A stretch of 64,000 bases of DNA from Candidatus Omnitrophota bacterium (lineage in GTDB: Bacteria > Omnitrophota > Gorgyraeia > Gygaellales > Profunditerraquicolaceae). The first letter of the stretch is position 1; each line of letters opens with the position of its first letter. The stretch is from assembly GCA_023227925.1 (NCBI GenBank), contig JALOCE010000001.1:539-64538 (forward strand). Direction: 5' to 3'. The position numbers were made by a program, and so were the translations under genes. The notes beneath the pieces were generated by a model. It worked only from the letters and a program-made list of their open reading frames with translations. It made no database searches and was not told the DNA's origin. This document shows positions 771 to 60,611 of the stretch, one piece after another.

Positions 771-1796
771 ATGCCAGAATTAAGAAAAGATCCGGTTTTA
801 GGAAGATGGGTTATTATTGCTACGGAACGGGCAAAGCGCCCTGACCAGTTCGCTGGTAAGCCGCAAGAAGGGCCGTTAGAAGAGCCTTGTCCTTTTTGCG
901 AGAATAATGAACCACGCACCCCTCCGGAAATATATGCCATAAGGCCAAAACACACGCCTTCAAATGGGCCAGGTTGGGAATTAAGGGTTGTCCCCAGTAT
1001 CGCGCCATTTTTGAGGATAGAAGGAGAATTGGAGCGCCGGGGAGAAGGCTTGTTTGATCTTATGAACGGCATTGGCGCGCATGAAATAGTCATTGAGACA
1101 AATCAGCATATCGCCAATATGGCAGATTTAAGCGAAGAGCAGATAGCAAAAGTAATAACTTGCTATATTGACAGGACAATAGATTTAGAGAAAGATAAGC
1201 GTTTTAAATATGTTTTAGTCTTTAAAAATTACGGCTGGAGTGCCGGAGGCGGCCGCGTAAAACATTCCCGGTCCCAATTGATCGCGACCCCGGTTAACCC
1301 CAAACGCGTTAAAGAAGAGTTAGTGGGGGCCAGGCAATATTATGATTATCACGAAAGATGTATCTTCTGCGATTTGATAAAGCAGGAGATAGCATCAAAA
1401 GACAGGGTTATCCTCGATATCGATGGTTTCATCGCGGTAACCCCATTTGCCGCACGTTTTCCTTTTGAAGTCTGGATCCTTCCTAAGAAGCATTCCTGTG
1501 ATTTTACCAGTATGGATATGGCGGCGCGCTACTCCTTAAGTTGCATATTGAAAAAAACCTTAGCTAAATTAAAGAAAGGCCTTAATGATCCGCCTTATAA
1601 TTATGTCTTGCATAGTGCGCCTTTCCGTCGCCAAAAAGTAGGCTATTGGAAGAGCATAGATTATGATTATCACTGGCATATCGAGATTATCCCGCGTTTG
1701 ACCAGGGTAGCAGGTTTTGAATGGGGAACGGGTTTTTATATCTGCCCGCTCCCGCCTGAAGATGCAGCCAAGTTTTTAAGAGAGGTCGAGGTTTAA
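771..1796 (+). CDS. Galactose-1-phosphate uridylyltransferase-like HIT-family nucleotidyltransferase, paralogue A, likely catalytically impaired
   Basis: Motifs: CPFCENNE zinc-knuckle and HWHIEIIPRLTRVAGFEWGTGFYI (GalT C-terminal half). The canonical HxHxQ active-site motif reads KHSRSQ here, so the nucleophilic second His is replaced by Arg. Confidence 0.75.
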   Translation: MPELRKDPVLGRWVIIATERAKRPDQFAGKPQEGPLEEPCPFCENNEPRTPPEIYAIRPKHTPSNGPGWELRVVPSIAPFLRIEGELERRGEGLFDLMNGIGAHEIVIETNQHIANMADLSEEQIAKVITCYIDRTIDLEKDKRFKYVLVFKNYGWSAGGGRVKHSRSQLIATPVNPKRVKEELVGARQYYDYHERCIFCDLIKQEIASKDRVILDIDGFIAVTPFAARFPFEVWILPKKHSCDFTSMDMAARYSLSCILKKTLAKLKKGLNDPPYNYVLHSAPFRRQKVGYWKSIDYDYHWHIEIIPRLTRVAGFEWGTGFYICPLPPEDAAKFLREVEV

Positions 1797-2792
1797 ATGT
1801 CTGAATTAAGAAGAGACCCTATCGGTGGAAGATGGGTTATAGTGGATACCGACCATCCAAGCAAGCCCGAAGAATACGAATACGAACCGAATTCTTTTCG
1901 CGGCGGCGTATGCCCTTTCTGTTATGGTAATGAGTCACTTACTCCTCCGGAAATAGAAGCGATCAGGGATCCCAACACTGCACCGAATACTTCCGGTTGG
2001 CAGGTGCGCGTAGTTGCTAATAAATTTCCCGCACTTGGGATCGAAGGGGACCTGGAGAGGCGGGGCCTTGGTATGTATGATATGTCTAACGGAGTGGGAG
2101 CGCACGAAGTTTTGATCGAGACGCCTTACCATGAAAAAGACATTCCGGATCTATTAAATTCTGAAATCGAGAATTTCCTTTCTATGTATTGCCGACGGGC
2201 GCTGGATCTGATAAAAGACAGGCGCTTTAAATATATCATGATCTTTAAGAATTACGGTGCAGCGGCAGGGGCTTCGTTAGAGCATCCCCATACGCAAATG
2301 GTTGCCCTTCCGATGGTGCCCAAGAATGTCATGGAGGAGATAAGGGGGGCACATAACTACTTTGAATATCGCGAACGCTGTATTTTTTGCGATATTATCA
2401 GGCAGGAGACACAAAAGAAAGAAAGGCTTATTTTAGAGAATAAACATTTTTTATCTTTTTGCCCTTTTGTTTCGCGTTTTCCTTTTGAGATTTGGATAAT
2501 CCCCAAGAAACACAATGGGCTCTTTTATCATATGCCTCAGGAGGAAATACCCGACCTGGCTTCAATATTAAAAGATACTATAGCAAAATTAAAGAAGATT
2601 TTCCCCAATGTTTCATATAATTTTATAGTGCATTCTTCCCCTGTAAACGGTGATGGCGGCATAGAGGGTTATCATTGGCACATCGAATTTATGCCTAAAC
2701 TGACTCGTGTTGCCGGTTTTGAATGGGGCACGGGTTTTTACCTTGTCGCCACCCCCCCGGAATTAGCAGCCGAATATCTAAGGAGCAAATAG
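1797..2792 (+). CDS. Galactose-1-phosphate uridylyltransferase-like HIT-family nucleotidyltransferase, paralogue B, intact active site
   Basis: Motifs: CPFCYGNE, EHPHTQMVALP (intact HxHxQ), HWHIEFMPKLTRVAGFEWGTGFY. The start codon directly abuts the stop of paralogue A. Similarity to paralogue A is evident by eye. Confidence 0.8.
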   Translation: MSELRRDPIGGRWVIVDTDHPSKPEEYEYEPNSFRGGVCPFCYGNESLTPPEIEAIRDPNTAPNTSGWQVRVVANKFPALGIEGDLERRGLGMYDMSNGVGAHEVLIETPYHEKDIPDLLNSEIENFLSMYCRRALDLIKDRRFKYIMIFKNYGAAAGASLEHPHTQMVALPMVPKNVMEEIRGAHNYFEYRERCIFCDIIRQETQKKERLILENKHFLSFCPFVSRFPFEIWIIPKKHNGLFYHMPQEEIPDLASILKDTIAKLKKIFPNVSYNFIVHSSPVNGDGGIEGYHWHIEFMPKLTRVAGFEWGTGFYLVATPPELAAEYLRSK

Positions 2793-2812
2793 GGTTTTTG
2801 TTAAACATATAA

Positions 2813-3899
<1,087 letters not shown>

Positions 3900-3924
3900 A
3901 GTTTAGTTTTTATGTGCATCATAA

Positions 3925-3951
3925 GGGCGGATTAGAATCCGCCCTTTTTTT
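3925..3951 (+). terminator. Rho-independent terminator downstream of gap
   Basis: GGGCGGA-ttagaa-TCCGCCC stem-loop followed by TTTTTTT. Confidence 0.8.
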
Positions 3952-3969
3952 CTAAAAAAATATTAAAAA

Positions 3970-5463
3970 ATGGATATTCTTCTTATTTCCCCGGACTATA
4001 ATAATAAATTAAGCAACTTTCCCTGGGGTGTATTATCCCTAGCCAGTTATTTGTCTAAAGTTAAGAATTACAAAGTCGTGCTTTTAGACGCCAGCGTTTA
4101 TTCCGAGCCTGATTTCTACCGCAGATTAGAAGAATCCTGTAAGGGGATTAGCCTTGTTGGGGTAAGCCTTATGTCTACGGATACATATTTTGGCAAGAAA
4201 GTTATTGACCGCATCAAAGAGATCGATCCTGAGATAAAAATAATCGTCGGAGGGCCGCATGCCAGGCTCCAGCCGGTATCTACCTGCGCGTATAAGAATA
4301 TTGATTTTGTCGCTTACGCTGATGGAGAGCATACCCTTGAATCCCTCTTTGAAAAAATAAAATCGAAAGATACTGATTACAGTCAAGTGCCCGGGCTTGT
4401 TTATAAAGAGGGAGGTCTGATTAAACGCACGCCTATCTCCAGTTCTCCTGATTTTTACGACATTAACTATGAACTTCTTCCCGAAAGGACAATAAAAGGG
4501 TTTGCAAGGTATATCCAGGTTTTAACCGGGAGAGGATGTAATTTTAAATGCACATTTTGTTTTAATTCCGTCTGTGGGCAGAAATGGCGGGGAAGGCCCA
4601 TGAAGGATGTTGTACGGGAATTAGAGGGTATTGTTGCTGAATATCATCCGTCGATAGTATATTTCAGGGACGACAATTTTTTTCAATCAAAAGAAAGGAT
4701 TTTCGAGTTTATAGAATTATATAAGCATAAAAAATTCACTTTTCAGTGGCGGGCGAGTTGCCGGGTGAATTACTTCAATGAAGGTTATATCACTCCTCAT
4801 GTAATAAAAGAGCTGGAAGCGATTAATTGCCAGGTGCTTAAGTTTGGCCTGGAGAGTGGTTCGCAAAGGATGCTTGATTACCTGAAAAAAGGAATAAATC
4901 TGGAAAAGGTAAAAGAATTGATACTGGTTTTAAGTAAGAGTAAAATAATCAAACCCGAATATTCGCTTATGATAGGGATGCCGAAGGAAACTACCCGGGA
5001 TTATATGGATACCCTTCGGCTCGTAGGTTTTATAAGAAAACATGACCCTCGCGCTGCGATCATCGGCCCTCAGTATTTCCGGGTTTACCCGGGAGGAGAG
5101 CTTTACGAAGAAATAAAAAAGATCTATGGTTACTTTGAGCCGGATTCTTTCGAGGGATGGGCAGAGAAAAGCTCTGACGCTAAGAACAAGTTATTAGGCC
5201 TGGGGCAAGATTTACGTTATCCGTGGGTGCCGGGTAAGTACTTATTTTTGGCCCAAAATGTTTGGCAGCTTGTGCTTTTTAGCCGTCAGGACGTCAAAAG
5301 ATACCTTAGCCTAAAGCTAATGGTGCAAATGCCTTTTATCCTGCTTGCCAAATTAAGGGTAAATTTATGCTGGTATAGCTTCCTCATTGATTTGAGGTTT
5401 GCCGTCTTGCTTAAAGATATAAAGAAACGCCTTCTCACAGTAGGCCATAATGAGATTAATTGA
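3970..5463 (+). CDS. B12-binding (class B) radical SAM protein
   Basis: The N-terminal domain has a cobalamin-binding-like layout (LISPDY...VVLLDAS...IIVGGPHARL). Radical SAM CxxxCxxC motif: LTGRGCNFKCTFCFN. The C-terminus has a hydrophobic tail. Confidence 0.7.
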   Translation: MDILLISPDYNNKLSNFPWGVLSLASYLSKVKNYKVVLLDASVYSEPDFYRRLEESCKGISLVGVSLMSTDTYFGKKVIDRIKEIDPEIKIIVGGPHARLQPVSTCAYKNIDFVAYADGEHTLESLFEKIKSKDTDYSQVPGLVYKEGGLIKRTPISSSPDFYDINYELLPERTIKGFARYIQVLTGRGCNFKCTFCFNSVCGQKWRGRPMKDVVRELEGIVAEYHPSIVYFRDDNFFQSKERIFEFIELYKHKKFTFQWRASCRVNYFNEGYITPHVIKELEAINCQVLKFGLESGSQRMLDYLKKGINLEKVKELILVLSKSKIIKPEYSLMIGMPKETTRDYMDTLRLVGFIRKHDPRAAIIGPQYFRVYPGGELYEEIKKIYGYFEPDSFEGWAEKSSDAKNKLLGLGQDLRYPWVPGKYLFLAQNVWQLVLFSRQDVKRYLSLKLMVQMPFILLAKLRVNLCWYSFLIDLRFAVLLKDIKKRLLTVGHNEIN

Positions 5464-6508
5464 TAAGGAAATATTAGCTAGCCTTTGCTTAAGAAAGAAG
5501 GATCTCCCTTTTCCGGAAGAGCTTATCTTTGAGCCAACCTCCCGCTGTAACTTTAGATGTAAAATGTGTTTTTATGACAGTGAATACTTTAAAATTCAAG
5601 ATAAGGAGATGAGCCTTTCTGAGATTGAAATTTGTATTTCTAATCTTCCCAAAACAATAAAGCGGGTGCTTTTGATAGGCGGAGAGCCCCTACTTAGGAA
5701 AGATATTGTTGATATTGTACGTTTATTTTCACAGAAAAAGATAAAAGTCGCCATTGTTACAAATGGATATTTGTTGACACCTGTTTTGACTGACGAGCTT
5801 AATAAAATAGGAAATATCGATAAAATAGCAATTTCACTCGATGGCCCTCCCGAAATTAATAATAAAATCAGAGGAGTCAAAGATGCTTTTGAGCGTTCTT
5901 ACGCCAACCTAAAGTACGCAGCTGATTATTTCAATACAGAAGTAGTATCTGTGCTTCAAGATGACAATGAAGCAGCATTGCACAGGTTGCTTCCTTATTT
6001 AAAAGAAATTCCTAATGTAGTTTTTATTGTTGAAATTATGCGTAAATATACCCGTCAACTAATCGACGATACGGCAAAGATCCTCCATATGCGCCCAGAA
6101 AATATACATTTACAAGCGTCAGATATTGCTCTTGATAACCGTTCGGTATCGAATATTCTATCTACCTTATCTAACATTAAGCGCGATGCGATTCATATGC
6201 AATTGAAATTACGTACAATTCCAGAAAATGCTTTTGAACGAATACCAAATTTACTGGGAAAGAATGAGAACCTTAATTATCCGCAAATTTGTGGCAGGCT
6301 TCCAAAGGTTAGGTTGGATAGCGTAGGAAATATAATTCAATGTTATGCTATACGTAAACCATTGGGTTCGCTTTTGGAGAAAAAATTAGAAGAAATATGG
6401 AATAGCGAAGATCTTAAAAATTTCCGTAAAGAAATGGTAGAAAAAAACCTTTTTCCGGTTTGTTCGCTTTGTTTTGCAGTAAAAAACCTGGATATTAAAA
6501 AAAAATAG
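5450..6508 (+). CDS. Radical SAM protein with C-terminal SPASM/twitch-like Cys motifs
   Basis: Radical SAM motif: EPTSRCNFRCKMCFY. C-terminal Cys-rich motifs: ICGRLPKVRLDSVGNIIQCYA and FPVCSLCF. Its start overlaps the end of the upstream gene. Confidence 0.7.
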   Translation: MRLIDKEILASLCLRKKDLPFPEELIFEPTSRCNFRCKMCFYDSEYFKIQDKEMSLSEIEICISNLPKTIKRVLLIGGEPLLRKDIVDIVRLFSQKKIKVAIVTNGYLLTPVLTDELNKIGNIDKIAISLDGPPEINNKIRGVKDAFERSYANLKYAADYFNTEVVSVLQDDNEAALHRLLPYLKEIPNVVFIVEIMRKYTRQLIDDTAKILHMRPENIHLQASDIALDNRSVSNILSTLSNIKRDAIHMQLKLRTIPENAFERIPNLLGKNENLNYPQICGRLPKVRLDSVGNIIQCYAIRKPLGSLLEKKLEEIWNSEDLKNFRKEMVEKNLFPVCSLCFAVKNLDIKKK

Positions 6509-6573
6509 ATAAGCAAATATGGAATAGGGCTTGTTTTTTAAGCTAAAGGGCGGTATTAAACCACTCTTTTTCC

Positions 6574-6602
6574 TTGACTTTTTAAAGGGCATTCCCTATA
6601 AT
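6574..6602 (+). promoter_or_regulatory. Consensus sigma70-type promoter (TTGACT, 17-nt spacer, TATAAT) 8 nt upstream of the ATG at 6611
   Basis: The -35 box TTGACT is at 6574-6579 and the -10 box TATAAT at 6597-6602, with an exact 17-nt spacer. The predicted transcription start lies about 1-2 nt before the start codon, implying a leaderless or near-leaderless mRNA. Confidence 0.5.
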
Positions 6603-6610
6603 ATTGTTCA

Positions 6611-8515
6611 ATGAATGAACATATTTCCAGGGAAGATATCTTTAATATTCTCCGTACGTTAGCCACAAATAATAATCCTACCCAGAGAGAGCTATCTACT
6701 CATTTAGGCTTCTCCTTAGGCAAGACTAATTACCTGATCAAAGAGCTGGCCAAAAAAGGCCTGGTAAAGACACAGGCTTTTAGCCATAAAGATAATAAGC
6801 TCAAGAGGATTTCGTATGTTTTGACCCCTCGGGGATTTAAAGAAAAGGCCGGGCTTACTTTACATTTTTTAGAGAAGAAAGAGATTGAATATAATGAACT
6901 TAGGAATGAATGGGAGCATATCAGGAGTTCTCGGCCAAAGGCGGACTTTAATAAAAAAAATCATACTGATATAAACTTCAGGAACTTTTCAGAGGTTATA
7001 GAGTTTAATGCCAGCCACTATCCGCAGAAGTTATTCTGTGCCGATCATTCGACCGATAGGAGCATAACCTATGCGGAATTCAATAGTTATGTGAATCGGT
7101 GTTGTAATTTTCTGAAAGATATGTCTGTAGGCGAGGGTGATATTGTTTCGGTCTGTATAAAAAATGGCATAGCTTTTATGATTATCTATTTCGCCAGTAT
7201 GCGGCTTGGCGCCTCGGTTAATCCGCTTCCTGCCTCTTTATCGTATCAGGAGATTAAAAAGAACATGGAGTTTTTGCCTGTTAAACTGCTATTCGCAGAG
7301 GATAGATTCAAAGGCAATGATTTCACTGGCAAGGGCAGCGTCTTTTTTATGGATTATAAGCATGATTGTTTTTTTGACGCTATATCAAAATACCCTCCGA
7401 GTTATAAATCTATTATAAATGAAGATAGTATCGCCTGTTATTATTACACTTCCGGTACAACCAGCAATCCTAAGTGTATTATGTACACACATAAAAATAT
7501 GGTTTCTCTTGTCAGGTCTATGACTAAGTCTTTTCATTATACTTTGGGCGATATCCACTTAGGGTTTTTGCCGTTAGGCCATACAGCGATTACAAATTAT
7601 CAACTGCTCCCCGCAGTGTATAATGCCAGCACGCTCTTGCTCTATGAAAATTTTATGAAGCTGCGGGCTGATTTTTGGAAGATCGTCCGGGATAATAGCG
7701 TTACTTATGTAGAAGTAGTACCAAGTGTATTATTCATGATGCTAAATACGCCTTATCAAGATGCTGATGTTGCCGGAAATACCACCTTGAAATATATAGG
7801 TTGTGGTTCTGCTCCATTGGCAGTAGATATACAAAAACAAGCCCGGGAAAAATTTGGTATTCCCGTTGCCAACTTGTATGGCCTTTCCGAGACAGGGCCG
7901 ACGCATTTCGATGACCCGTTCAGGGATGGCTGGCGGCCTGGTAGTGTCGGTAAACCCATAGACGCATGCGAATGCAGGATTTTCAGGGAGGATAAAACCG
8001 AGGCCGATATCGGCGAAGTCGGGGAGATCGCGGTTAAAGGCGACAATGTCTTTAGAGGTTATTACAAAAACGACGCAGCCTATCAGCAAGTAATGCATAA
8101 TGGGTACTTTTTGACCGGGGATTTAGGCTATAAAGATGAAGACGGCTACTTTTATTTTGCCGACCGTAAAAAAGACTTGATTATCAAGGGGGGGGTTAAT
8201 ATTGTTCCGGCTGAAGTTGAGGAGGTCCTCTACCAGCTCCAGGAAGTTCAGATCGCCGCAGTAGTAGGCATTGAGGATGTCATTTACGGGGAAGATGTAG
8301 TTGCCTTTGTAAAATTAAAAGATAGTTTCATTATCGGAGAAGACAAAATCAAGGTTTTTTGCGCAGAAAACCTGCAGGGTATTAAGTGCCCGAAAGAAAT
8401 CTATATCATAGGCGATATGCCGCTAGGGCCATCCGGTAAGATCCTTAAGAAAGAGCTCAAGAAAAGATATGCCGAAAATTACTATGGAAGAAAGCAAGCT
8501 GGACAATTACCTTAG
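6611..8515 (+). CDS. Fusion protein: N-terminal MarR_EPS-like winged-helix domain plus AMP-dependent acyl ligase
   Basis: The first roughly 110 aa (QRELSTHLGFSLGKTNYLIKELAKKGLVKTQAFSHKDNKLKRISYVLTPRGFKEKAGLTLHFL) match the EPS-associated MarR family pattern. The rest has the adenylate-forming motif YYTSGTTSNPKC and a C-terminal TGDLGYKDEDGYFYFADRKKDLIIKGGVNI. Confidence 0.75.
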   Translation: MNEHISREDIFNILRTLATNNNPTQRELSTHLGFSLGKTNYLIKELAKKGLVKTQAFSHKDNKLKRISYVLTPRGFKEKAGLTLHFLEKKEIEYNELRNEWEHIRSSRPKADFNKKNHTDINFRNFSEVIEFNASHYPQKLFCADHSTDRSITYAEFNSYVNRCCNFLKDMSVGEGDIVSVCIKNGIAFMIIYFASMRLGASVNPLPASLSYQEIKKNMEFLPVKLLFAEDRFKGNDFTGKGSVFFMDYKHDCFFDAISKYPPSYKSIINEDSIACYYYTSGTTSNPKCIMYTHKNMVSLVRSMTKSFHYTLGDIHLGFLPLGHTAITNYQLLPAVYNASTLLLYENFMKLRADFWKIVRDNSVTYVEVVPSVLFMMLNTPYQDADVAGNTTLKYIGCGSAPLAVDIQKQAREKFGIPVANLYGLSETGPTHFDDPFRDGWRPGSVGKPIDACECRIFREDKTEADIGEVGEIAVKGDNVFRGYYKNDAAYQQVMHNGYFLTGDLGYKDEDGYFYFADRKKDLIIKGGVNIVPAEVEEVLYQLQEVQIAAVVGIEDVIYGEDVVAFVKLKDSFIIGEDKIKVFCAENLQGIKCPKEIYIIGDMPLGPSGKILKKELKKRYAENYYGRKQAGQLP

Positions 8516-9278
8516 TCTTGCCAAGAAGGCAGTAACTAAAGTCGGCGAGATTATTGAGGCAGAAAAAAGAAAAGGTTACCGGGTGATCCGGAAAGAAAAA
8601 AATGAACTCGTGACCGAGCTTGATGTATTGGCGCAAGCCCGGTTAATCGATCTTTTGAAAGAAGAGGCCGAATGCCGGACATTTATTGCCGAAGAAAAAC
8701 GGATATTAGATTTACCGGAGAACGATTTTTGGGTTATTGACCCCATAGATGGGACACATAATTTTATTGCGGGATTACCGTTTTATAGCGTTAGCCTTGC
8801 ATATTTTCATAAGGGGATACTGATGCTCTCCGCCGTATATTTTCCGGAATCCAGGGATTTATATTATGCGCAGAAAGGCAAGGGCGCTTTTTGTAATAAC
8901 GCGCTGATCCGGATTTCTTCAAATAAAGATTTAGCAAAAGGCATTGTTGCCTATGATAATCAGTTTTATCTTACCAAAAACAGCCTTGCTAATTTTATCG
9001 AAATTCAAAAGAGCGTGTTTACTACCAGAATCCTGGGCGTGGCTTCGCGCGATGCATGTTTCGTGGCTGAGGGAGTTTTGGATGCAAGGATCTGGAATTC
9101 TACAAAACTCTGCGATATTGCTGCGGGTAGTTTGATCGTGGAGGAAGCCGGTGGAAGGGTGAGTGATTTTTCTGGAAAGCCGTTAGATTTTCATTCAGTA
9201 AAAGACGTAATCGCCTCTAGCGGAAAATTTCACGGCGATTTAATAAAAATTTTAAATCATGAAGATAATAATGACTGA
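8469..9278 (+). CDS. Inositol monophosphatase / CysQ-family phosphatase
   Basis: Motif WVIDPIDGTHNF plus the rest of the IMPase fold signature. The true start may be the ATG at 8484. The ORF overlaps the 3' end of the ligase gene. Confidence 0.75.
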   Translation: MPKITMEESKLDNYLSLAKKAVTKVGEIIEAEKRKGYRVIRKEKNELVTELDVLAQARLIDLLKEEAECRTFIAEEKRILDLPENDFWVIDPIDGTHNFIAGLPFYSVSLAYFHKGILMLSAVYFPESRDLYYAQKGKGAFCNNALIRISSNKDLAKGIVAYDNQFYLTKNSLANFIEIQKSVFTTRILGVASRDACFVAEGVLDARIWNSTKLCDIAAGSLIVEEAGGRVSDFSGKPLDFHSVKDVIASSGKFHGDLIKILNHEDNND

Positions 9279-10308
9279 CAAGAGACCGATCATAGGCATA
9301 ACTATCGGTGAGCCTGCCGGTATAGGCAGTGAGATTGCGGTAAAGTTGCTTAGTGACCCGGAAGTCTATAAGATAGGGAGGCCGATAATCATCGGCTCGG
9401 AGTTTTTAATCAAAGAAGGAATGCGCATTGCCCAAGTAAATAAAAAAGCCTATGCGATAAAAGATGAAGAGATTGATAAGGTCGAATACTCCGAAGAAGA
9501 AATAAAATATATCGATTGTAAGAATATCCGGGAAGGTGATTTTGATTACGGAAAGATCTCTGCTAAAGCTGGAAGGGCTGCCGGTGAGTATATTAAAAAA
9601 GCAGTGCAATTGGCTTTAGAGAATAAGATCAATGCGATTGTCACTTGTCCTATTCATAAGGAATCCTTTACCCTGGGAGGCTGGGGAAAACGCTATGCCG
9701 GGCATACAGAGATGATCTCGGATTTAACCGGGACTAAGAAATACGCAATGGTGTTAGCCTGTGATAAGCTGCGCGTCATTCATGTTACCACACATGTTTC
9801 TTTAAAGAAATCTATCGAAGATTGTAAGAAAGGAAGGATTTTAGATGTGATCCAGCTTGGCCATAATGCCTGCAGAAAGCTTGGTATCCAGAAGCCCAGG
9901 ATCGGTGTTGCGGGTTTAAATCCTCATGCCGGTGACGGGGGGATCTTTGGCGATGAAGAGATAAAAGAGATTATGCCGGCGATTAAAGAAGCCCAAGATC
10001 TGGGTTTTGATGTTTCCGGCCCGATTTCTGCTGATACTATTTTCTGTAAGGCCAAGGGCGGCATGTTTGATATAGTAATTGCTATGAATCATGACCAGGG
10101 CCACATCCCGTTGAAATACGCAGGTTTTCTTTATAATGACCAGGCTAAATCCTGGGGGATCCGGGGAGTAAATATTACGGTAGGGCTACCGATAATCCGG
10201 GTCTCTGTTGATCATGGCACGGCCTTTGGTAAAGCAGGGAAAGGGACCGCAGATTATACCAGTTTAAAAGATGCTTATAGGTATGCCGTGGAGATGGCCA
10301 GCAATTAG
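9259..10308 (+). CDS. PdxA-family NAD-dependent 4-hydroxy-acid phosphate dehydrogenase (4-hydroxythreonine-4-phosphate dehydrogenase-like)
   Basis: Motifs: GITIGEPAGIGSEI, GHTEMISDLTG, GLNPHAGDGG, MNHDQGHIPLK. An alternative start at 9271 overlaps the upstream stop codon. Confidence 0.8.
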   Translation: MKIIMTDKRPIIGITIGEPAGIGSEIAVKLLSDPEVYKIGRPIIIGSEFLIKEGMRIAQVNKKAYAIKDEEIDKVEYSEEEIKYIDCKNIREGDFDYGKISAKAGRAAGEYIKKAVQLALENKINAIVTCPIHKESFTLGGWGKRYAGHTEMISDLTGTKKYAMVLACDKLRVIHVTTHVSLKKSIEDCKKGRILDVIQLGHNACRKLGIQKPRIGVAGLNPHAGDGGIFGDEEIKEIMPAIKEAQDLGFDVSGPISADTIFCKAKGGMFDIVIAMNHDQGHIPLKYAGFLYNDQAKSWGIRGVNITVGLPIIRVSVDHGTAFGKAGKGTADYTSLKDAYRYAVEMASN

Positions 10309-10316
10309 AATTTATA

Positions 10317-10562
10317 ATGGAAGAATTAAACAACATTATCAGCCAGGTGTTCGGGATCAAGCAAGACCAGATAAAGGATGAATATGGCCCCAATAATATT
10401 CCTCGTTGGGATTCATTATCGCAGCTTGCTTTGATTTCGGCAATCGAAACTCATTATAAAGTCACGCTGGAGATTGAAGAAATATTTCAGATAATGACCA
10501 TAGGAGATGTCCGTTCTGTCCTGGCAAAGAAATTAAATCAAAATAAGGAAAGTTTAAAATGA
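10317..10562 (+). CDS. Acyl carrier protein
   Basis: The product is 81 aa with a DSLSQLALISAIE phosphopantetheine-attachment motif. Its length and acidity are typical of an ACP. Confidence 0.75.
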   Translation: MEELNNIISQVFGIKQDQIKDEYGPNNIPRWDSLSQLALISAIETHYKVTLEIEEIFQIMTIGDVRSVLAKKLNQNKESLK

Positions 10563-11236
10563 GCGCGGTTAAAAAAATAGTTATTTTTGGGGCAGGTAGA
10601 GGTTCGCGTGATGTTTTGCAGCTTATCAGGCAAATAAACGCTAAGTCTTCTGTATGGGAAATCCTGGGTTTTGTGGATGCCGACCCGGAATTAAAAGGAA
10701 AGCTGATTGATGATTGCCTGGTGTTAGGAGATAAATATGTTGTGCCTGCGCAGGAAACCATATACGGGATAACTGGCGTGCAAATCCCCCAACTCAGGCG
10801 CAAGATCATAGAGAATGAAATTGAAGGCAGGGGTTTATGCCTGGCAAATTTGGTCCATCCGGCAATAGAATTGCCTGCTGATTTACAAATGGAAGCAGGG
10901 TGCATAATCTACCCCGGAGTAATCATTGCTTCAAATGTGAAACTGGGGAAGGCTGTGATCGTCAATTACAATACTCTGCTGGGTATTGATCTGAAAGTCG
11001 GAGACTATGCATTTATCGGCCCGGGAGTAAACATCACAGCCAGTTGTTCTATAGGCAGGGAATGCATCATTGGCACAGGCGCGATTTTTATGCCCGGAGT
11101 TTCCGTAGGCAATGAATCTATTGTCGGATTAGGAACAAAATTATTTATTAGTGTGGGCGACAAGAAAAGTGTTGTTGATTTGCCGCGTAAAATAATGAAG
11201 GATATTAATGAAGCTCCGAAGAAGGTTTCCTGGTGA
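10559..11236 (+). CDS. NeuD/PglD-family sugar N-acyl/acetyltransferase (hexapeptide repeat)
   Basis: N-terminal Rossmann-like KIVIFGAGRGSRDV followed by a left-handed beta-helix with hexapeptide repeats. Its ATG overlaps the ACP stop codon (ATGA). Confidence 0.7.
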   Translation: MSAVKKIVIFGAGRGSRDVLQLIRQINAKSSVWEILGFVDADPELKGKLIDDCLVLGDKYVVPAQETIYGITGVQIPQLRRKIIENEIEGRGLCLANLVHPAIELPADLQMEAGCIIYPGVIIASNVKLGKAVIVNYNTLLGIDLKVGDYAFIGPGVNITASCSIGRECIIGTGAIFMPGVSVGNESIVGLGTKLFISVGDKKSVVDLPRKIMKDINEAPKKVSW

Positions 11237-12246
11237 AAGATAGCCCCATGAAGAAAGTATTTATTATTGCCGAAGCAGGCGTTAATCATAACGGCTCTTT
11301 AGCATTAGCTAAGAGATTAATTGATGCGGCGAAGAAAGCAGGAGCCGATGCCGTTAAATTTCAGTCTTTTATTGCAGAAGAAGGTATTAGTATAAATGCG
11401 CCAAAGGCAGATTATCAGCTTAAAACTACTACCAGGAATGAAAGCCAGATCGAGATGCTTAAAAAGCTGGAACTTTCTTATAGCGACCATCTCAAGCTTT
11501 TAGCTTATTGTAAGAAAAAGAAGATAGGATTTCTCTCAACTGCCTGCGACTTAAAGAGTGTTGATATGTTGAAGCGGTTAAAGGTTAAAGCAATAAAGAT
11601 TGCCTCTTGTGATTTGGTGAATATTCCCCTTTTGCGTTGTGTCGCTAAATTAGGTAAAAAAGTATTTCTTTCAACCGGTATGTCTACGCTTGGCGAAGTA
11701 AGTAATGCAGTGGAGGAGTTAAGAAAGAACGGAAGCCCTGATATTACGCTTTTACATTGCGTTACGGAATATCCCTGTCCGCCTGAAGAAATCAATTTAC
11801 GAAAAATGCTTACACTGAAGAAAAACTTTAATCTACCCGTTGGTTTCTCGGATCACAGCCAGGGGGTATCAACTTCTTTGGCGGCAGTGGCATTGGGGGC
11901 AGAAGTCATAGAGAGGCATTTTACCCTGGATAGAAATCTTAAAGGGCCCGATCATAAGGCATCGCTGGAGCCCGATAGCCTGTTTTCTTTGGTAAAATCA
12001 ATACGGGAAATCGAATCGGCCTTAGGCAGTCCTGAATTTGTGCCCGCGAAATCAGAATTAAAAAATATTAATATCATGCGAAGAAAAATAGTAGCTGCAA
12101 GGGCAATAAAGAAGGGAGAGGTGCTTAGCGCTGGTAACTTAGCATTTAAAAGAGCGCAAGGAGGACTTATTCCCGATAATTATGATTTGGTTGTAGGCAG
12201 GACCGCTACAAAAAATTATAATCCGGATGACGTCATAATATTATGA
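11233..12246 (+). CDS. N-acetylneuraminate / legionaminate / pseudaminate synthase family (NeuB family)
   Basis: Motif FIIAEAGVNHNGSLALAKRLIDAAKKAGADAVKFQ and a C-terminal SAF domain. Confidence 0.85.
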   Translation: MKDSPMKKVFIIAEAGVNHNGSLALAKRLIDAAKKAGADAVKFQSFIAEEGISINAPKADYQLKTTTRNESQIEMLKKLELSYSDHLKLLAYCKKKKIGFLSTACDLKSVDMLKRLKVKAIKIASCDLVNIPLLRCVAKLGKKVFLSTGMSTLGEVSNAVEELRKNGSPDITLLHCVTEYPCPPEEINLRKMLTLKKNFNLPVGFSDHSQGVSTSLAAVALGAEVIERHFTLDRNLKGPDHKASLEPDSLFSLVKSIREIESALGSPEFVPAKSELKNINIMRRKIVAARAIKKGEVLSAGNLAFKRAQGGLIPDNYDLVVGRTATKNYNPDDVIIL

Positions 12247-13124
12247 TCTATGTTTCATCGGAGTGTATCCAGGCAAGGTATATAGTTGAGAATGTCAAAG
12301 AGCTGGCATCTTCGGGATTCAGGCGGATCGAGCTTTCCGGAGGGACAAGTTATTATAATAGTTACCTTGGAGATTTACTCAAGCTAAAAAAAGAACACAA
12401 ACTGGAATATTTAGTGCACAATTATTTCCCTCCCCCTGAAGAAGGCTTTGTTTTGAATCTGGCCTCTTTAAGCGAGAAGGTGAGGAATAGGTCAGTCGAT
12501 TTTTGTAAGAAGGCAATTGAGGTTGCAGCTGTCTTAGGTGCTGGTTATTATTCGGTCCATGCAGGTTTTTACTTTGACCCGGAGATTACAGAGCTGGGAA
12601 AGGTCATTAAACCGCGCAAATTATATCCGGCCGGAGATTCGATACAGGTATTTATAGATAATTTTAAGGCGCTAAAGCAATATGCGTTAGCGCATCGGAT
12701 TAAATTGTACCTGGAAAATAACGTAGTTAATCTTAAGAGTTTTCAATCGTTGAATAAAATGATACCTGCGATGCTGCTTACTTTTGAAGATGCCCGGGAA
12801 TTAGGCAGGAAAATAGATTTTAATCTTCTCTTAGACGTCGGTCATTTAAAAGTCACGGCTCAGACGCTGGGCCTGGATTTTCAAAAACAATTTTCCGGGC
12901 TTTTTAAGATCTCTGATTATCTGCACCTTAGCGATAATAACGGATTGATGGATGAACATGGCTTGATCTTCGATGACTCGATGATCTATAAGATGTTTTT
13001 GGGGCATGATTTAACGCAGAAAACTTTTGTCCTGGAGACACACGGGGAAATAAATGATGTTAAAAAATCCTATGTGCTTATTTCAAACCTGCTGACGCAG
13101 AAAACCAAACAACCCCCGGGGTGA
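12243..13124 (+). CDS. Xylose-isomerase-like TIM-barrel sugar-phosphate isomerase/epimerase (tentative)
   Basis: The length and spaced E/H/D residues (VHAGF ... LYLENN ... LDVGHLK) resemble the AP-endonuclease-2 / sugar phosphate isomerase barrel. There is no stronger motif. Confidence 0.35.
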   Translation: MIYVSSECIQARYIVENVKELASSGFRRIELSGGTSYYNSYLGDLLKLKKEHKLEYLVHNYFPPPEEGFVLNLASLSEKVRNRSVDFCKKAIEVAAVLGAGYYSVHAGFYFDPEITELGKVIKPRKLYPAGDSIQVFIDNFKALKQYALAHRIKLYLENNVVNLKSFQSLNKMIPAMLLTFEDARELGRKIDFNLLLDVGHLKVTAQTLGLDFQKQFSGLFKISDYLHLSDNNGLMDEHGLIFDDSMIYKMFLGHDLTQKTFVLETHGEINDVKKSYVLISNLLTQKTKQPPG

Positions 13125-14572
13125 GCATGGAAATACATAAGTTTACGGTGAATACAGAGGATACGATATTGCGGACAATGCACGCCATTAATGAGGGCGG
13201 TATTGGCGTCGCGGTTATAGAGGATAAGGATAAAAAATATTTTGGCCTGGTCACGGATGGAGATGTAAGGAGGGCCTTACTTGACGGCGTAGATTTACAT
13301 GAGCCGGTAAAGTCAATTGCCAGAAAAGACGCAGTTACTGCATCGGAGAAGACGTCTTATGAGAGCATCTTTTCTCTGATGAATGAAAAAATCCGCCATA
13401 TCCCCATCATTGATGCAAAGGGAAGAGCAAAAGATCTGGTTTATTTTTCTTATAGAAAAGAGATTCCTGTTGCCAAGCCTTTTTTAAGAGGTAACGAATT
13501 AAAATATGTAACGGAATGTATCCTGGGTAATTGGATATCTTCCCAGGGCAACTATGTAAATGAGCTTGAGAGGCGTTTCTCCGAATTCTGCGGGGTAGAC
13601 TATAGCCTGGCTGTTTCTAATGGCACTGTAGCTTTACATCTTGCCTTAGTTTGTTTAGGTATAAAAAGAGGCGATGAGGTGATCGTTCCTTCGCTTACTT
13701 TTATTGCCACCGCTAATGCAGTGACTTATACAGGGGCAAAACCGGTTTTTGTAGACTCGGAGTGCGATACTTATAATATCGATCCTCGAAAAATTGAAAA
13801 AGCTGTGACTCGCCGCACAAAAGCGATTATCCCGGTCCATCTCTACGGGCAACCGGCAAAGATGGATGAGATCATGGCTATTGCCCGAAAGCATAAAATT
13901 CATGTAGTAGAAGATGCCGCGGAAGCCCATGGCGCTGAGTATAAGCAAAAGAAGGTCGGCTCTATAGGCGATATAGGTTGTTTTAGCTTTTTTGGCAATA
14001 AGATCATAACTACCGGTGAAGGCGGGATGGTAGTTACGAATAATCATAAAATTTATCAGAAGGCCAGGATATTAAGAGACCATGGTATGTCCCTGGAAAA
14101 AAAATATTGGCACGAGCAGGTCGGCTTTAATTATCGGATGACCAATGTCCAGGCAGCTATAGGGTGCGCCCAGATGGAGAAAGTCGAAGTTATTTTAAAA
14201 GAAAAGCAAAAAATTGCCCGGATGTATAAAAAATATCTATCCCCGGATTCCCGTCTTATCCTGCCGCAGGAATTTGACTGGTCAAAAAATGTTTACTGGA
14301 TGTATCCGGTAACTTTTAAGACTACAGGTAAAAATAAGGAGAATGTAAGAAACAAGATCATTGAATTTTTAGCGCAGGATAGCATAGGAGCCAGGCCGTT
14401 CTTTTATCCTATCCATACTATGCCGCCGTATTATTCTAAGTCAAGGCTTCCTGTAGCCGAATCTGTTTCTGAAAACGGGATCGTGCTTCCCGCTTATATG
14501 GGTATGCAGGAAAAAGAGATCCAGAGAATATGTAATTTAATAAAAACTACTTTAGATAAAATATTAAGCTGA
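13121..14572 (+). CDS. CBS-pair domain fused to DegT/DnrJ/EryC1-family PLP-dependent sugar aminotransferase
   Basis: The N-terminal roughly 120 aa carry two CBS-like repeats (GLVTDGDVRRALLDG ... IRHIPIIDAKGRAKDLVY). The remainder has the aminotransferase signature GNWISSQGNYVNELERRFSEFCGVDYSLAVSNGTVALHLAL. Confidence 0.8.
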   Translation: MSMEIHKFTVNTEDTILRTMHAINEGGIGVAVIEDKDKKYFGLVTDGDVRRALLDGVDLHEPVKSIARKDAVTASEKTSYESIFSLMNEKIRHIPIIDAKGRAKDLVYFSYRKEIPVAKPFLRGNELKYVTECILGNWISSQGNYVNELERRFSEFCGVDYSLAVSNGTVALHLALVCLGIKRGDEVIVPSLTFIATANAVTYTGAKPVFVDSECDTYNIDPRKIEKAVTRRTKAIIPVHLYGQPAKMDEIMAIARKHKIHVVEDAAEAHGAEYKQKKVGSIGDIGCFSFFGNKIITTGEGGMVVTNNHKIYQKARILRDHGMSLEKKYWHEQVGFNYRMTNVQAAIGCAQMEKVEVILKEKQKIARMYKKYLSPDSRLILPQEFDWSKNVYWMYPVTFKTTGKNKENVRNKIIEFLAQDSIGARPFFYPIHTMPPYYSKSRLPVAESVSENGIVLPAYMGMQEKEIQRICNLIKTTLDKILS

Positions 14573-14573
14573 G

Positions 14574-16010
14574 ATGAAAAAAAAGGGAAGAGTACTTCTG
14601 ATCGTACACGATGTTTATCAGGATGATAATGTATTTCCTATGGGCGTAGGCTATCTGGCATCTTTTTTGGAAAGAGAAGGAGCAGGCGTAACCGTATATT
14701 CACAGGATGTTTTTCATTATACAAATCAGGATTTAGCTAAATTCCTGCTCGAGAATGAGTTTGATTTAATAGGTGTTGGCTTTCTGGCGGCGAGATTCAA
14801 AGAGACTATTCTCGATCTATGTAAAATCGTAAATGAATGCAAAAAAGATGCTTTTCTGGTGTTAGGTGCCCATGGCCCTTCGCCTATTCCGGAATATATC
14901 CTGGATAAAACCAATGCCGATATCATAGTTATTGGCGAAGCAGAAGAGACAATGGCAGATTTACTTGAATGTAAATTATCCGGTGGCAAAGACCTGCATA
15001 AGATCAGAGGAATAGCGTATAGAAAAAACTCCGTTTGTTGTATCAATCCCAGGCGCACCCCTGTTAAAGATTTGGACTTAATCCCTTTTCCTGCCTGGCA
15101 CTTATTCCCGATTGAGAAATATGCTACTTGTCTTAAGCTCTTTGGCCATAAAGAAACCAATAGATATATGCCTATTATTACAAGCAGGGGCTGCGTCAAT
15201 GAATGCAACTTTTGTTATAGAATCGAAAAGGGGTTCAGGCTAAGAAGCATAGAGAGCATTATCCAGGAAATAAAGATTTTAAATAGCGAATACGGCATAA
15301 ATTATTTTCTTATTTTTGATGAATTATTCCTTATCTCCAAGAAACGCTTGAAAGATTTCAAGGGTGCCTTAGAGAAGAATAACCTTAAAATAGAGTTTTC
15401 TTGCAATGCGAGGGCGGATATCCTGGATGAAGAATCTCTCCGGATGATGAAAGAATGCGGATGCAGATTGATCAGTTTTGGTCTGGAATCGACGGATCAA
15501 AGCGTGCTGAATTTAATGAATAAAAATACTACAGCCGAACAGAATCTTAGAGCGGTAGAATTAACAAAAAAAGCAGGTATTGGCATAGGGTTATGTTTTA
15601 TATGGGGCAACAAAGGGGATAATGAGGCTACTCTTAAGTCAAACCTGGCATTTATAAAGAAGTATAATACCTATGATCAGATCAGGACTATAAGGCCGGT
15701 TACGCCTTTTCCAGGCAGTAAGTTGTATTATGAGGCGATAGAGAATGGGTTATTAGGGGGCCCGGAAGATTTTTTTGCGAAATTTAAGAATTCCGATCTC
15801 CTGACAGTGAATTTTACGAATATACCGGATAAGAATTTTTATGAGCTGCTGTTCGAGGCAAATAGAGAACTTATCCTGGATCATTATAACCATACCGGTG
15901 GAAATACGGAAGCCGCCAATACCCTGATCGATCAATTCCAAAGGTTATATTTTTTAGGCGAGCATAAATTCAGAGGGGCGCGGCATTACAAACGGATAGA
16001 AGTAAAATGA
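14574..16010 (+). CDS. B12-binding (class B) radical SAM protein
   Basis: N-terminal B12-like domain (VLLIVHDVYQDDNVFPMGVGYLASFL) and radical SAM motif ITSRGCVNECNFCYR. Confidence 0.7.
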   Translation: MKKKGRVLLIVHDVYQDDNVFPMGVGYLASFLEREGAGVTVYSQDVFHYTNQDLAKFLLENEFDLIGVGFLAARFKETILDLCKIVNECKKDAFLVLGAHGPSPIPEYILDKTNADIIVIGEAEETMADLLECKLSGGKDLHKIRGIAYRKNSVCCINPRRTPVKDLDLIPFPAWHLFPIEKYATCLKLFGHKETNRYMPIITSRGCVNECNFCYRIEKGFRLRSIESIIQEIKILNSEYGINYFLIFDELFLISKKRLKDFKGALEKNNLKIEFSCNARADILDEESLRMMKECGCRLISFGLESTDQSVLNLMNKNTTAEQNLRAVELTKKAGIGIGLCFIWGNKGDNEATLKSNLAFIKKYNTYDQIRTIRPVTPFPGSKLYYEAIENGLLGGPEDFFAKFKNSDLLTVNFTNIPDKNFYELLFEANRELILDHYNHTGGNTEAANTLIDQFQRLYFLGEHKFRGARHYKRIEVK

Positions 16011-16891
16011 AGATGGATAATAAGATCCAAACCCTGCTTTTTTCATTAGGTATTTGTAGCCGAGACTCGATTGAGCAATTTTATCCTCATGCAAGAGATA
16101 GAGAGGATGTTTCTGTGATGAGATGCAGAAAATCCGGAATAATATTCCTGTCGCGCACGGATCATATAAAAAGTTATTACTATCAGGATCAGAAGGGTTT
16201 TGATTATTGGTCAGCTAAAGATAGAGATAGCGCGATATCAAGTACGATTTCTGATAACCGTAGAAGATTTCGCCAATTTTATGATTTAGTCCGCAATAGA
16301 AAATGGCTGGATTTTGGCACAGGGGCAGGCGGTATTTTAGAATTATTAAGTCCTGTTGCCTTAGAGGCCGTGGCAGTCGAGCCTCAGAAAGAAGCCCGGA
16401 ATATGTTATTAGGTTGCGGCTATAAAGTTTACGCTGATATAGGGGAAGTCCCGGAAGCAGAGTTTGATACAGTGACTTTATTCCATGTTTTTGAGCATCT
16501 TGATGAGCCAATCGAGACGCTTAAGAAAATTGCGCATAAAATAAAGGGAGGAGGAAGGCTGATTATAGAAGTTCCTCATGCTAATGATGCCCTCATCTCA
16601 TTTTTTAAGTTGCGGGATTTCAAGTCTTTTACTTTTTGGAGTGAGCATCTTATTTTGCATACACGGGATAGCTTAAAAATTTTCCTTGAAAATGCTGGTT
16701 TTAAAAATATCCATATCTATGGTTGCCAAAGGTATCCGTTTACTAACCATCTCTACTGGTTGATTACCGGTAAACCAAAGGGCCATCTGGTATGGAAATC
16801 ATTGAGGATCCGGGTATTGGAAAATATATATGCCAAATTGCTTTCGCGTTTTAATAAGACCGATACTTTAATCGCTATTGCGGAAAAATAA
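16007..16891 (+). CDS. Class I SAM-dependent methyltransferase
   Basis: Motif I LDFGTGAGGILE, a FHVFEHLDEP post-motif II region, and GGRLIIEVP. Confidence 0.7.
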   Translation: MKMDNKIQTLLFSLGICSRDSIEQFYPHARDREDVSVMRCRKSGIIFLSRTDHIKSYYYQDQKGFDYWSAKDRDSAISSTISDNRRRFRQFYDLVRNRKWLDFGTGAGGILELLSPVALEAVAVEPQKEARNMLLGCGYKVYADIGEVPEAEFDTVTLFHVFEHLDEPIETLKKIAHKIKGGGRLIIEVPHANDALISFFKLRDFKSFTFWSEHLILHTRDSLKIFLENAGFKNIHIYGCQRYPFTNHLYWLITGKPKGHLVWKSLRIRVLENIYAKLLSRFNKTDTLIAIAEK

Positions 16892-59620: not shown

Positions 59621-59646
59621 CAAAAGCCCTCTTTCTGCGATAATAT
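59617..59646 (+). promoter_or_regulatory. Putative sigma70-type promoter (TTGACA, 18-nt spacer, TAATAT) overlapping the stop codon of the GT26 gene
   Basis: The -35 box TTGACA is at 59617-59622 and the -10 box TAATAT at 59641-59646. An AAAGGAA RBS and the ATG at 59676 follow. Confidence 0.4.
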
Positions 59647-59663
59647 TTTATCTAAATTTATAA

Positions 59664-60611
<948 letters not shown>

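Follow-up and report, generated by a model that had tools for sequence, protein, structure and literature searches.

A predicted carrier-protein-dependent acylation operon in an Omnitrophota glycan locus, headed by a MarR_EPS-ligase fusion gene with a candidate leaderless promoter

The closest described counterpart of the gene set considered here lies in the O1 antigen locus of Vibrio cholerae, where the tetronate genes RfbK-RfbO (WbeK-WbeO, VC0248-VC0252), which include the carrier RfbK and the adenylating ligase RfbL, serve to N-acylate perosamine with 2,4-dihydroxybutanoate (PMC3441752, PMC12208996). We analyzed a 64-kb stretch of contig JALOCE010000001.1 from a Candidatus Omnitrophota bacterium (the window), in which an open reading frame (ORF) encoding a MarR_EPS winged helix-turn-helix (wHTH) domain fused to an ANL-type adenylate-forming ligase is followed by genes for an IMPase-family phosphatase, a PdxA-family dehydrogenase, an acyl carrier protein (ACP) and a hexapeptide N-acyltransferase (Table 1). 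Both loci combine a dedicated carrier, an adenylating ligase and accessory enzymes within a surface-glycan locus. They differ in that the accessory enzymes of the window are an IMPase and a PdxA (or, in related loci, a GAPDH-like protein) and the acceptor is probably a legionaminic-acid precursor, a comparison that is made by description only. The Vibrio set contains a LuxC-like reductase and an alcohol dehydrogenase, along with a hexapeptide transferase; family scans of the window proteins found no LuxC-like reductase and no iron alcohol dehydrogenase. Because the accessory enzymes differ, the module resembles the Vibrio tetronate system in outline without being a member of it, and the presence of IMPase and PdxA or GAPDH-like accessories points to a phosphorylated precursor.

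It is also informative to compare individual proteins of the window with characterized relatives. The transferase belongs to the same hexapeptide fold family as LegH, PglD, VioB and PerB (its nearest solved relatives are VioB, at E 2.3e-20, PerB and PglD), and like these it would act between a LegC-type aminotransferase and a NeuB synthase. Those enzymes use acetyl-CoA, whereas the window gene is coupled to an ACP gene, the ATGA at 10559-10562 being the ACP stop codon overlapping the transferase start just as the initial annotation had described, and its product scores below the family cutoff; from these two features we propose an acyl-ACP donor, by analogy with LpxA and LpxD. The PdxA homologue passes the cutoff of the PdxA model and scores 283.7 bits against the model for D-threonate-4-phosphate dehydrogenase, but, in contrast to PdxA and PdxA2, its gene belongs to a glycan operon, flanked by those for a phosphatase and an ACP, and none of the annotated genes of the window could be assigned to vitamin-B6 metabolism or threonate catabolism. 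This context, together with the exchange for a GAPDH-like gene described below, makes a paralogous function likely. Finally, BirA of E. coli is both a biotin protein ligase and the repressor of the bio operon, with an N-terminal winged helix and a domain that makes an acyl-adenylate. The window fusion is like BirA in layout only: both join a winged helix to an acyl-adenylate-forming domain and are encoded with or near their own pathway, but BirA has the biotin-protein-ligase fold and represents an ancient and widespread coupling, whereas the window protein has the ANL fold and its fusion is recent and confined to one lineage.

We consider it reasonably probable that the window contains an operon of about 26 kb for a legionaminic-acid-type sugar bearing an unusual N-acyl group, headed by an autoregulating fusion protein and transcribed from a leaderless promoter. 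In the proposed pathway, a small polar acid, probably a phosphorylated hydroxy-acid, would be adenylated by the ligase and passed to the dedicated ACP. Most likely while bound to this carrier, it would be modified by the PdxA-like dehydrogenase and lose its phosphate to the IMPase-like phosphatase. The LegC-like aminotransferase would supply the amino group to which the hexapeptide transferase delivers the acyl chain from the ACP, after which NeuB condensation and CMP activation would leave the group on N7 of a legionaminic-acid-like sugar. The N7 acceptor is proposed because the closest solved relatives of the transferase acetylate the 4-amino group of nucleotide-linked 4-amino-4,6-dideoxy sugars and because LegC-, NeuB- and cytidylyltransferase-type genes are present. 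On the regulatory side, MarR_EPS regulators with their own promoter appear to stand before gene cassettes in Omnitrophota glycan loci, and the fused domains would keep separate jobs.

Gene neighborhoods bear on the enzymatic part of this reading. A scan of one genome per species with an alignment of the ligase yielded 30 loci; the window proteins were mapped onto these and onto the loci retrieved earlier, and the counts that follow refer to 28 non-redundant module loci. Within 3 kb of the ligase, an ACP is found in 23 of the 28 loci and an IMPase homologue likewise in 23, the latter nearly always directly downstream. A PdxA homologue is present in 16 loci, and in seven its place is taken by a divergent GAPDH-like protein in which only the NAD-binding domain was detected; the two never occur together (0 of 28). 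The GAPDH-like gene (Gp_dh_N domain only, E ~1e-6) adjoins the ACP, ligase and IMPase genes in L007, L012, L014, L017, L022, L023, L025 and L050. Judged from these neighborhoods, the exchange of PdxA for the GAPDH-like protein defines two predicted subtypes of the module. A hexapeptide transferase occurs within 3 kb in nine loci, and is not a constant member of the module, and NeuB within 10 kb in 14. A MarR_EPS gene adjoins the ligase in only one of 28 other loci; this family belongs with Omnitrophota glycan loci generally and not with this enzyme module. Among the hosts are Omnitrophota, Planctomycetia, Fibrobacterota, Anaerolineales, Saganbacteria, Clostridia, Aminicenantes, Oligoflexia, Altiarchaeota and methanogen-related archaea, as well as the cultured Sphingobium mellinum, S. 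faniae and Desulfamplus magnetovallimortis.

Gene fusions tell the same story within single polypeptides. ACP and ligase are joined in P0042, P0047, P0048 and P0063, and the ligase carries a fused Inositol_P (IMPase) domain in P0072 and P0084. In P0013 all three are combined as ACP-ligase-IMPase: residues 38-84 align with the window ACP and residues 595-846 are 44% identical to the window IMPase, and the locus also has a PdxA, a hexapeptide protein and radical SAM genes. The orthologues with an N-terminal ACP domain are 48-50% identical to the window ligase, which makes a carrier protein the probable acceptor and the enzyme a candidate acyl-ACP-forming ligase. More broadly, the ligase family appears to work with a dedicated carrier protein and an IMPase homologue in glycan loci, often those for nonulosonates. 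The idea of an ACP-dependent acylation system, first put forward from the window alone, is thus supported by synteny over the 28 loci and by the ACP-ligase and ACP-ligase-IMPase fusions. We found no publication describing the core of ACP, ligase and IMPase with PdxA or a GAPDH-like protein, and papers on Vibrionaceae nonulosonate clusters, on Omnitrophota and on SugarBase make no mention of it.

The surroundings of the module vary. Several PdxA-type loci, such as L013:8577-16843 and L019:13702-16933, contain a 323-aa GNAT protein, a glyoxalase-like protein, a PIG-L de-N-acetylase and an NAD-binding epimerase/reductase, along with a metallophosphoesterase and an ATP-grasp enzyme, and these stretches have no hexapeptide transferase; the neighbors suggest a different route of acyl attachment. 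Radical SAM genes are also recurrent. The window has four of the B12-binding type (3970-5463, 14574-16010, 16892-18568 and 54405-56585), one of them fused to an S-adenosylmethionine-dependent methyltransferase domain, and two radical SAM/SPASM genes (18-722 and 5450-6508); similar genes accompany the module in L002, L016 and L049. They suggest C-methylation or other radical chemistry on the sugar or on the acyl chain.

Which acid is activated can be narrowed to some degree. It would be small and polar because the nearest solved relatives of the ligase are oxalyl- and malonyl-CoA synthetases, and it would probably be phosphorylated because a phosphatase is obligatory to the module and in some cases shares its polypeptide chain with the carrier. 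A phosphorylated acid is also indicated because the alternative partners, PdxA and the GAPDH-like protein, belong with enzymes that act on short sugar-phosphate-derived acids, as the characterized PdxA, PdxA2, Epd and GAPDH all do. Candidates are 3-phosphoglycerate and 4-phospho-tetronate (4-phospho-erythronate or 4-phospho-threonate); after dephosphorylation, the candidate group would be of the glyceroyl or tetronoyl type.

It is worth considering that the IMPase and PdxA might instead act on the sugar, at the level of the nonulosonate 9-phosphate, or that the IMPase might remove the 3',5'-ADP released by phosphopantetheinylation of the ACP. The terminal CHOH-CH2-O-phosphate of a 9-phospho-nonulosonate does resemble the substrates of PdxA, and NeuB proximity in half of the loci would fit action on the sugar; the IMPase family includes 3',5'-bisphosphate nucleotidases, and CysQ models match the window protein at 88 bits. 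That protein, which has the metal-binding DPIDGT motif (WVIDPIDGTHNF in the translation) and reaches no equivalog cutoff, nevertheless matches FBPase/IMPase and HisN models with better scores than the CysQ models, which speaks against the 3',5'-ADP role. Action on the sugar fits poorly with the fusion of IMPase, ligase and ACP in one polypeptide, and the ligase-IMPase pair also occurs without NeuB within 10 kb, including in Sphingobium (L022, L023 and L025). We regard these roles as improbable and retain the view that the two enzymes work on the acyl group.

Several observations weigh against the pathway as drawn. Enzymes of the PdxA family normally oxidize and decarboxylate free 4-phospho-3-hydroxy acids, and we know of no precedent for a member acting on a carrier-bound acyl chain. 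The transferase, which the initial annotation called NeuD-type, has TIGR03570 as its best family but falls below the cutoff of that model, so the family assignment stands in kind and not at equivalog strength. A hexapeptide transferase is absent near the ligase in most loci, some of which have GNAT, PIG-L and ATP-grasp genes, and the transfer chemistry may therefore differ among them. Nor did the operon yield either the 4,6-dehydratase or the 2-epimerase expected from the canonical legionaminic route; the sugar itself may therefore be made in a non-canonical way.

We turn to the first protein of the operon, whose N-terminal 101 residues constitute a full member of the MarR_EPS family by score, by invariant residues and by predicted fold. 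Residues 8-106 match TIGR04176 at 102 bits (cutoff 88) over model positions 4-101 of 105, as the initial annotation had anticipated, all 15 invariant residues of the family are retained, and the domain also matches HTH_24 at 33.2 bits. An AlphaFold2 model of the domain (predicted local distance difference test, pLDDT, 87.4) has three helices, a beta-hairpin wing and a long C-terminal helix, and its top Foldseek matches in the PDB are MarR, MepR, PcaV, HcaR and ZitR, each at probability 1.00. A sequence search of the PDB with the domain gave no match, the MarR relatives emerging only from the fold search. Failure of this domain to adopt a wHTH fold would have undone the original proposal; on score, invariant residues and modeled structure, it is predicted to be a MarR-type winged helix. 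A literature search on TIGR04176 returned nothing relevant.

The ligase part matches AMP-binding (PF00501) over residues 133-485 at 227.1 bits and AMP-binding_C (PF13193) over residues 535-610 at 52 bits, with the core motifs YTSGTTSNPK, GDLGY...RKKDLIIKGG and PSGK intact. Its best NCBIfam model is PRK06187, at 354.8 against a cutoff of 476, and all 25 best models remain below their cutoffs; no exosortase-associated ligase model, the kind that the initial annotation had proposed to score against, is among these 25. Between the two domains lies a linker with low pLDDT that aligns with the variable tails of stand-alone MarR_EPS proteins and appears to derive from the regulator's variable C-terminal tail.

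The fusion is rare. Among 814 homologues of the whole protein it recurs only in P0001, a 96%-identical protein from a second assembly (Candidatus Omnitrophica metagenome-assembled genome, MAG, GCA_028713615.1), whose contig L001 is syntenic with the window; the other homologues, judged from the best 120 of the 814, are mostly ligases of about 500 aa. A query spanning the junction (aa 1-260) retrieved no protein matching both halves from 1.84 billion cluster representatives, a search that fusions inside clusters with an unfused representative, like this protein's own, would escape. The 72 homologues retrieved with the wHTH domain alone are all stand-alone proteins of 70-151 aa, in contrast to the 634-aa product in the window; because this search missed the known fusion P0001, it cannot exclude other fusions. 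These comparisons support the initial annotation in calling the arrangement unusual, and they place the fusion in one lineage, as what appears to be a recent, single-lineage event.

An assembly or frameshift artefact was considered and rejected, because the second assembly, diverged by about 4%, has the same fusion and the ratio of nonsynonymous to synonymous substitution rates (dN/dS) is low in both domains. Comparison with the L001 copy gives 10 synonymous and 2 nonsynonymous differences in the wHTH core (dN/dS 0.05) and a dN/dS of 0.08 for the ligase domain, which indicates that both are under purifying selection; the linker has 8.3 nonsynonymous differences over its 19 codons. Also rejected was an internal start yielding a free ligase. 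The ATG at 6611 is the first start codon after the preceding stop, and the hidden Markov model aligns from residue 8 onward; near codon 121, where the ligase begins, the reading frame offers no ATG, GTG or TTG, and an AGGAG at about 6921 has no start codon after it. Hence the gene start used from the outset holds, and the ligase is predicted to be made only as the fusion.

The likely origin of the fusion can be read from its relatives. The next closest ligase with long genomic context, P0004 (62% identity), is encoded in L005/L006, where a separate 138-aa member of TIGR04176 (100.9 bits) is followed after a 40-nt gap by the ligase and then by genes for the IMPase, PdxA, ACP, hexapeptide transferase, NeuB, a xylose-isomerase-like TIM-barrel protein and the CBS-aminotransferase, followed by a B12 radical SAM enzyme, a methyltransferase, a GFO/IDH/MocA oxidoreductase and a cytidylyltransferase. 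The gene order of the window is identical except for one extra B12 radical SAM gene (14574-16010). The look at neighboring genomes that the initial annotation had suggested therefore did show, as expected, regulator and ligase genes that are separate and adjacent. Stand-alone ligases start with MNFKNFSEIIEF; the equivalent in the window is D-I-NFRNFSEVIEF, with ATA at 6971-6973 in place of the ancestral ATG. By this sequence comparison, the fusion arose from adjacent regulator and ligase genes: a small deletion would have removed the regulator's stop codon and the intergenic spacer, making one protein of the two, and the ligase start codon would have decayed from ATG to ATA.

A wHTH and an adenylate-forming domain on one chain, separated by a linker of only about 19 residues, invite the speculation that the protein is an enzyme-repressor in the manner of BirA, in which the acyl-adenylate of the ligase would control dimerization or DNA binding of the wHTH so that transcription of the operon tracks the demand for acyl-ACP. 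Production of the ligase only as a fusion with no internal start, purifying selection on both domains and a palindrome at the gene's own promoter (see below) are all consistent with such coupling. Set against this, the fusion is confined to one species-level lineage (2 of 814 ligase homologues), the junction-spanning query found no other in 1.84 billion cluster representatives, the closest syntenic relative has separate genes, and the linker is fast-evolving and predicted to be disordered, contrary to what a tuned interdomain interface would require. We rate this enzyme-repressor behavior as unlikely. Equally doubtful, in our judgment, is the combined proposal that acyl-adenylate or ACP occupancy switches the wHTH at its own leaderless promoter while the core makes an undescribed phospho-acid-derived N-acyl group on nonulosonic acids across phyla. 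We prefer to think of two domains that share a chain and keep separate functions.

The promoter of the fusion gene lies at 6574-6602, in the 102-nt intergenic gap 6509-6610. It matches TTGACA/TATAAT at 11 of 12 positions and outranks every other promoter-like site in the first 20 kb; the elements and spacing first reported for it stand, although the description "perfect" is a little too strong. Promoter-like sites of at least 11/12 number three on both strands of the 64 kb, against 2.5 +/- 1.6 expected, so as a bare sequence match the promoter is within chance, and its significance comes from position and conservation. With regard to position, both such sites on the forward strand fall in two of the window's five intergenic gaps longer than 50 nt. 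The other one, at 59617-59644 (TTGACA-16-GATAAT), sits in a 55-nt gap before an epimerase gene at 59676 that, unlike the gene at 6611, has a leader of about 31 nt with an AAGGA ribosome-binding site. From the 8 nt between the -10 hexamer and the ATG, transcription is expected to start at 6609-6611, giving a predicted leader of 0-2 nt; that is, transcripts from TTGACT-17-TATAAT would begin at the ATG or 1-2 nt before it and would be leaderless. The gene has no Shine-Dalgarno sequence, and several other genes of the window have clear ones.

With regard to conservation, a block of the form TTGAC(A/T)-16/17-TATAAT-ATTGTTCA-ATG occurs at 17 distinct MarR_EPS sites, stand-alone Omnitrophota members having the same promoter-start arrangement as the window. 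At 16 of the 17, the -35 element, which was outside the pattern used in the block scan, matches at five or more of six positions (TTGAC(A/T/G) or TTGATA) and lies 16-17 nt from the -10, with spacers unrelated in sequence. Among stand-alone MarR_EPS genes fetched by homology (L037, L039 and L040), the block stands at six of nine gene starts, with TTGAC(A/G) (TTGATA in L040), 16 or 17 nt, TATAAT or TAAAAT, AT(T/C)(G/A)TTCA and ATGAATGAACA; a pattern scan of metagenome contigs added seven further sites. A 49%-identical homologue (L052) has TTGACA-17-TAGAAT-ATTGTTCA-ATGAATGAACA, and the more divergent L051 lacks the block, having an AGGAGG ribosome-binding site instead, which indicates that the arrangement is specific to a lineage and not to the whole family. 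The comparison of the 17 sites and of L052 strongly supports the leaderless reading first suggested from the window, in so far as sequence can do so.

Three considerations count against this conclusion. The search pattern behind most of the 17 sites itself contains the -10-to-ATG block, so that the independent evidence for a promoter consists of the -35 element and the homology-found sites only. The distance of 8 nt from the -10 to the A of the ATG is at the long end of the usual sigma-70 -10-to-start distances. In addition, no terminator-like site was found on the forward strand between 6508 and 6611, which makes read-through from the upstream operon possible. In a read-through transcript the inverted repeat at 6605-6621 could form a small hairpin with the AUG in its loop (-4.6 kcal/mol); a transcript starting at the ATG would lack the 5' arm of this hairpin.

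The inverted repeat TGTTCA-N5-TGAACA, which spans the predicted transcription start and the start codon, is the sole perfect copy in the window, where no further copies of the promoter block or the palindrome were found; it is present at L037, L039, L040 and L052. At L053:4930-5003 (a candidate division WOR-3 MAG), the promoter is kept and the palindrome reads TGTTCA-ATCAA-TGAACA, with ATC replacing its ATG and the regulator gene starting further downstream in another frame. That the palindrome is retained where it is non-coding argues that it acts as DNA or RNA, beyond any constraint from the protein sequence. The palindrome at 6605-6621 is the leading candidate for an autoregulatory operator of the MarR_EPS domain: the winged helix would probably bind it over its own start and so autoregulate the operon.

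The block could also be viewed mainly as a junction for recombination or mobile cassettes, conserved through repeated duplication of the 5' end of the regulator. This is prompted by L037 (GCA_043812035.1, an Omnitrophota MAG), where at least five copies lie within 12 kb (1300-12345), 89-96% identical to one another over 187-300 nt, interspersed with HEPN/nucleotidyltransferase toxin-antitoxin pairs, an IS605-type transposase, AAA_14/DUF4143 and Schlafen-AlbA ATPases; in some copies the regulator has been cut short or has lost internal sequence, so that an intact promoter is followed by an ORF of 17, 18 or 27 aa. Block arrays are found in L005:918-5660 as well, and these arrays look like a cassette junction or integration hotspot inside glycan loci. 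Yet across metagenomes the spacers and flanks differ fully and the -35, the spacing and the -10 are kept, which is the signature of a promoter, and L052, at 49% identity, repeats this layout with TAGAAT in the -10 position. As the main explanation of the block, a junction is in our opinion very unlikely; the two roles are mutually compatible, and we continue to treat the block as a promoter with a candidate operator.

The extent of the operon exceeds what was first described. The gene calls and coordinates of the fusion, IMPase, PdxA, ACP and hexapeptide transferase genes were all reproduced, but the unit does not end at 11236: the NeuB gene overlaps the transferase gene by 4 nt, and the 24 genes from 6611 to 32920 are separated by gaps of no more than 18 nt. 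From this run we infer that the promoter before 6611 heads an operon of about 26 kb. The window as a whole (39% G+C, with every substantial ORF on the forward strand) is probably a large surface-polysaccharide locus, its remaining genes encoding glycosyltransferases, methyltransferases, two Wzy_C proteins, a WecG/TagA-type transferase, an initiating transferase and an ABC exporter; in L001, priA and fmt precede the locus, which begins immediately to the left of the first gene of the window. An MptE/Maf-like gene (25102-26058) led us to consider a flagellin-glycosylation island, but the Wzy_C, WecG/TagA, initiating transferase and exporter genes fit a surface polysaccharide.

Table 1. Positions of the principal genes, protein domains and promoter elements in the 64-kb window
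Feature	Coordinates	Strand	Evidence or remark
-35 hexamer TTGACT	6574-6579	+	17-nt spacer to -10
-10 hexamer TATAAT	6597-6602	+	8 nt before ATG 6611
Inverted repeat TGTTCA-ATGAA-TGAACA	6605-6621	.	spans predicted transcription start and start codon
MarR_EPS-ANL ligase fusion ORF, 634 aa	6611-8515	+	TIGR04176, AMP-binding and AMP-binding_C matches
MarR_EPS winged-helix core, aa 1-101	6611-6913	+	TIGR04176, invariant residues, predicted fold
Linker, aa 102-120	6914-6970	+	aligns with variable tails of stand-alone homologues
ANL adenylate-forming ligase domain, aa 121-634	6971-8515	+	first codon ATA, versus ATG in stand-alone orthologues
IMPase-family phosphatase	8469-9278	+	Inositol_P (PF00459) E 1.5e-49, 169.3 bits
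PdxA-family NAD(P)-dependent dehydrogenase	9259-10308	+	PF04166 E 1.3e-96; TIGR00557 319.7 versus cutoff 290.35
Acyl carrier protein, 81 aa, Ser33 in DSL motif	10317-10562	+	PP-binding (PF00550) 26.2 versus cutoff 20.8
Hexapeptide (left-handed beta-helix) N-acyltransferase, NeuD/PglD/VioB type	10559-11236	+	TIGR03570 135.8, below cutoff 160.8
Downstream nonulosonic-acid genes, same operon	11233-20207	+	order as in L005/L006
NeuB-type synthase	11233-12246	+	NeuB_NnaB-type, 451.9, above cutoff 399.65
CBS-LegC-like aminotransferase	13121-14572	+	LegC family 386 bits versus cutoff 420
CMP-sugar cytidylyltransferase	19503-20207	+	

Other genes of the locus deserve brief mention. The ACP carries its serine in the motif RWDSLSQL, and all NCBIfam ACP models score it below cutoff. 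Between the NeuB and radical SAM genes stand a xylose-isomerase-like TIM-barrel gene (AP_endonuc_2; 12243-13124) and the LegC-like aminotransferase gene (13121-14572), whose product has an N-terminal CBS pair, and the two are found at corresponding places in L005/L006. A second NeuB-type synthase (aa 460-790 of a 794-aa protein, 27809-30193) is fused to an N-terminal FAD amine-oxidase/UDP-galactopyranose-mutase-like domain. Two paralogous proteins of 449 and 448 aa (20220-21569 and 22413-23759), 59% identical and without a Pfam match, flank an SDR gene; they are followed by an unrelated 444-aa ORF, also without a Pfam match (23766-25100), and then by the MptE/Maf-like gene. The paralogues, the 444-aa ORF and the MptE/Maf-like gene may encode undescribed nonulosonate transferases. 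Upstream of the fusion gene, an operon at 771-3946 contains two tandem genes for GalT-like HIT-family nucleotidyltransferases and a type I GAPDH (TIGR01534, 442.6 versus cutoff 367.2), and no terminator-like hairpin in the first 20 kb is stronger than the one that follows it (3923-3946, 10 pairs and a T-run).

Carrier-protein-dependent N-acylation of an amino sugar is known in outline from the cholera O1 antigen, and the core of ACP, ligase and IMPase with PdxA or a GAPDH-like protein adds a distinct set that is conserved across phyla, from Omnitrophota to Sphingobium and archaea. This core predicts a new acyl decoration on sialic-acid-like surface sugars, and its cultured carriers allow the prediction to be tested. 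The fusion, for its part, is a recent and datable case in which a DNA-binding domain has been joined to the first enzyme of the pathway behind it. We found no promoter data for Omnitrophota in the literature, and for this phylum without a cultured representative the promoter-start block offers a concrete candidate for a leaderless promoter with its operator. Both the conserved enzyme core and the leaderless promoter-operator block merit experimental attention.

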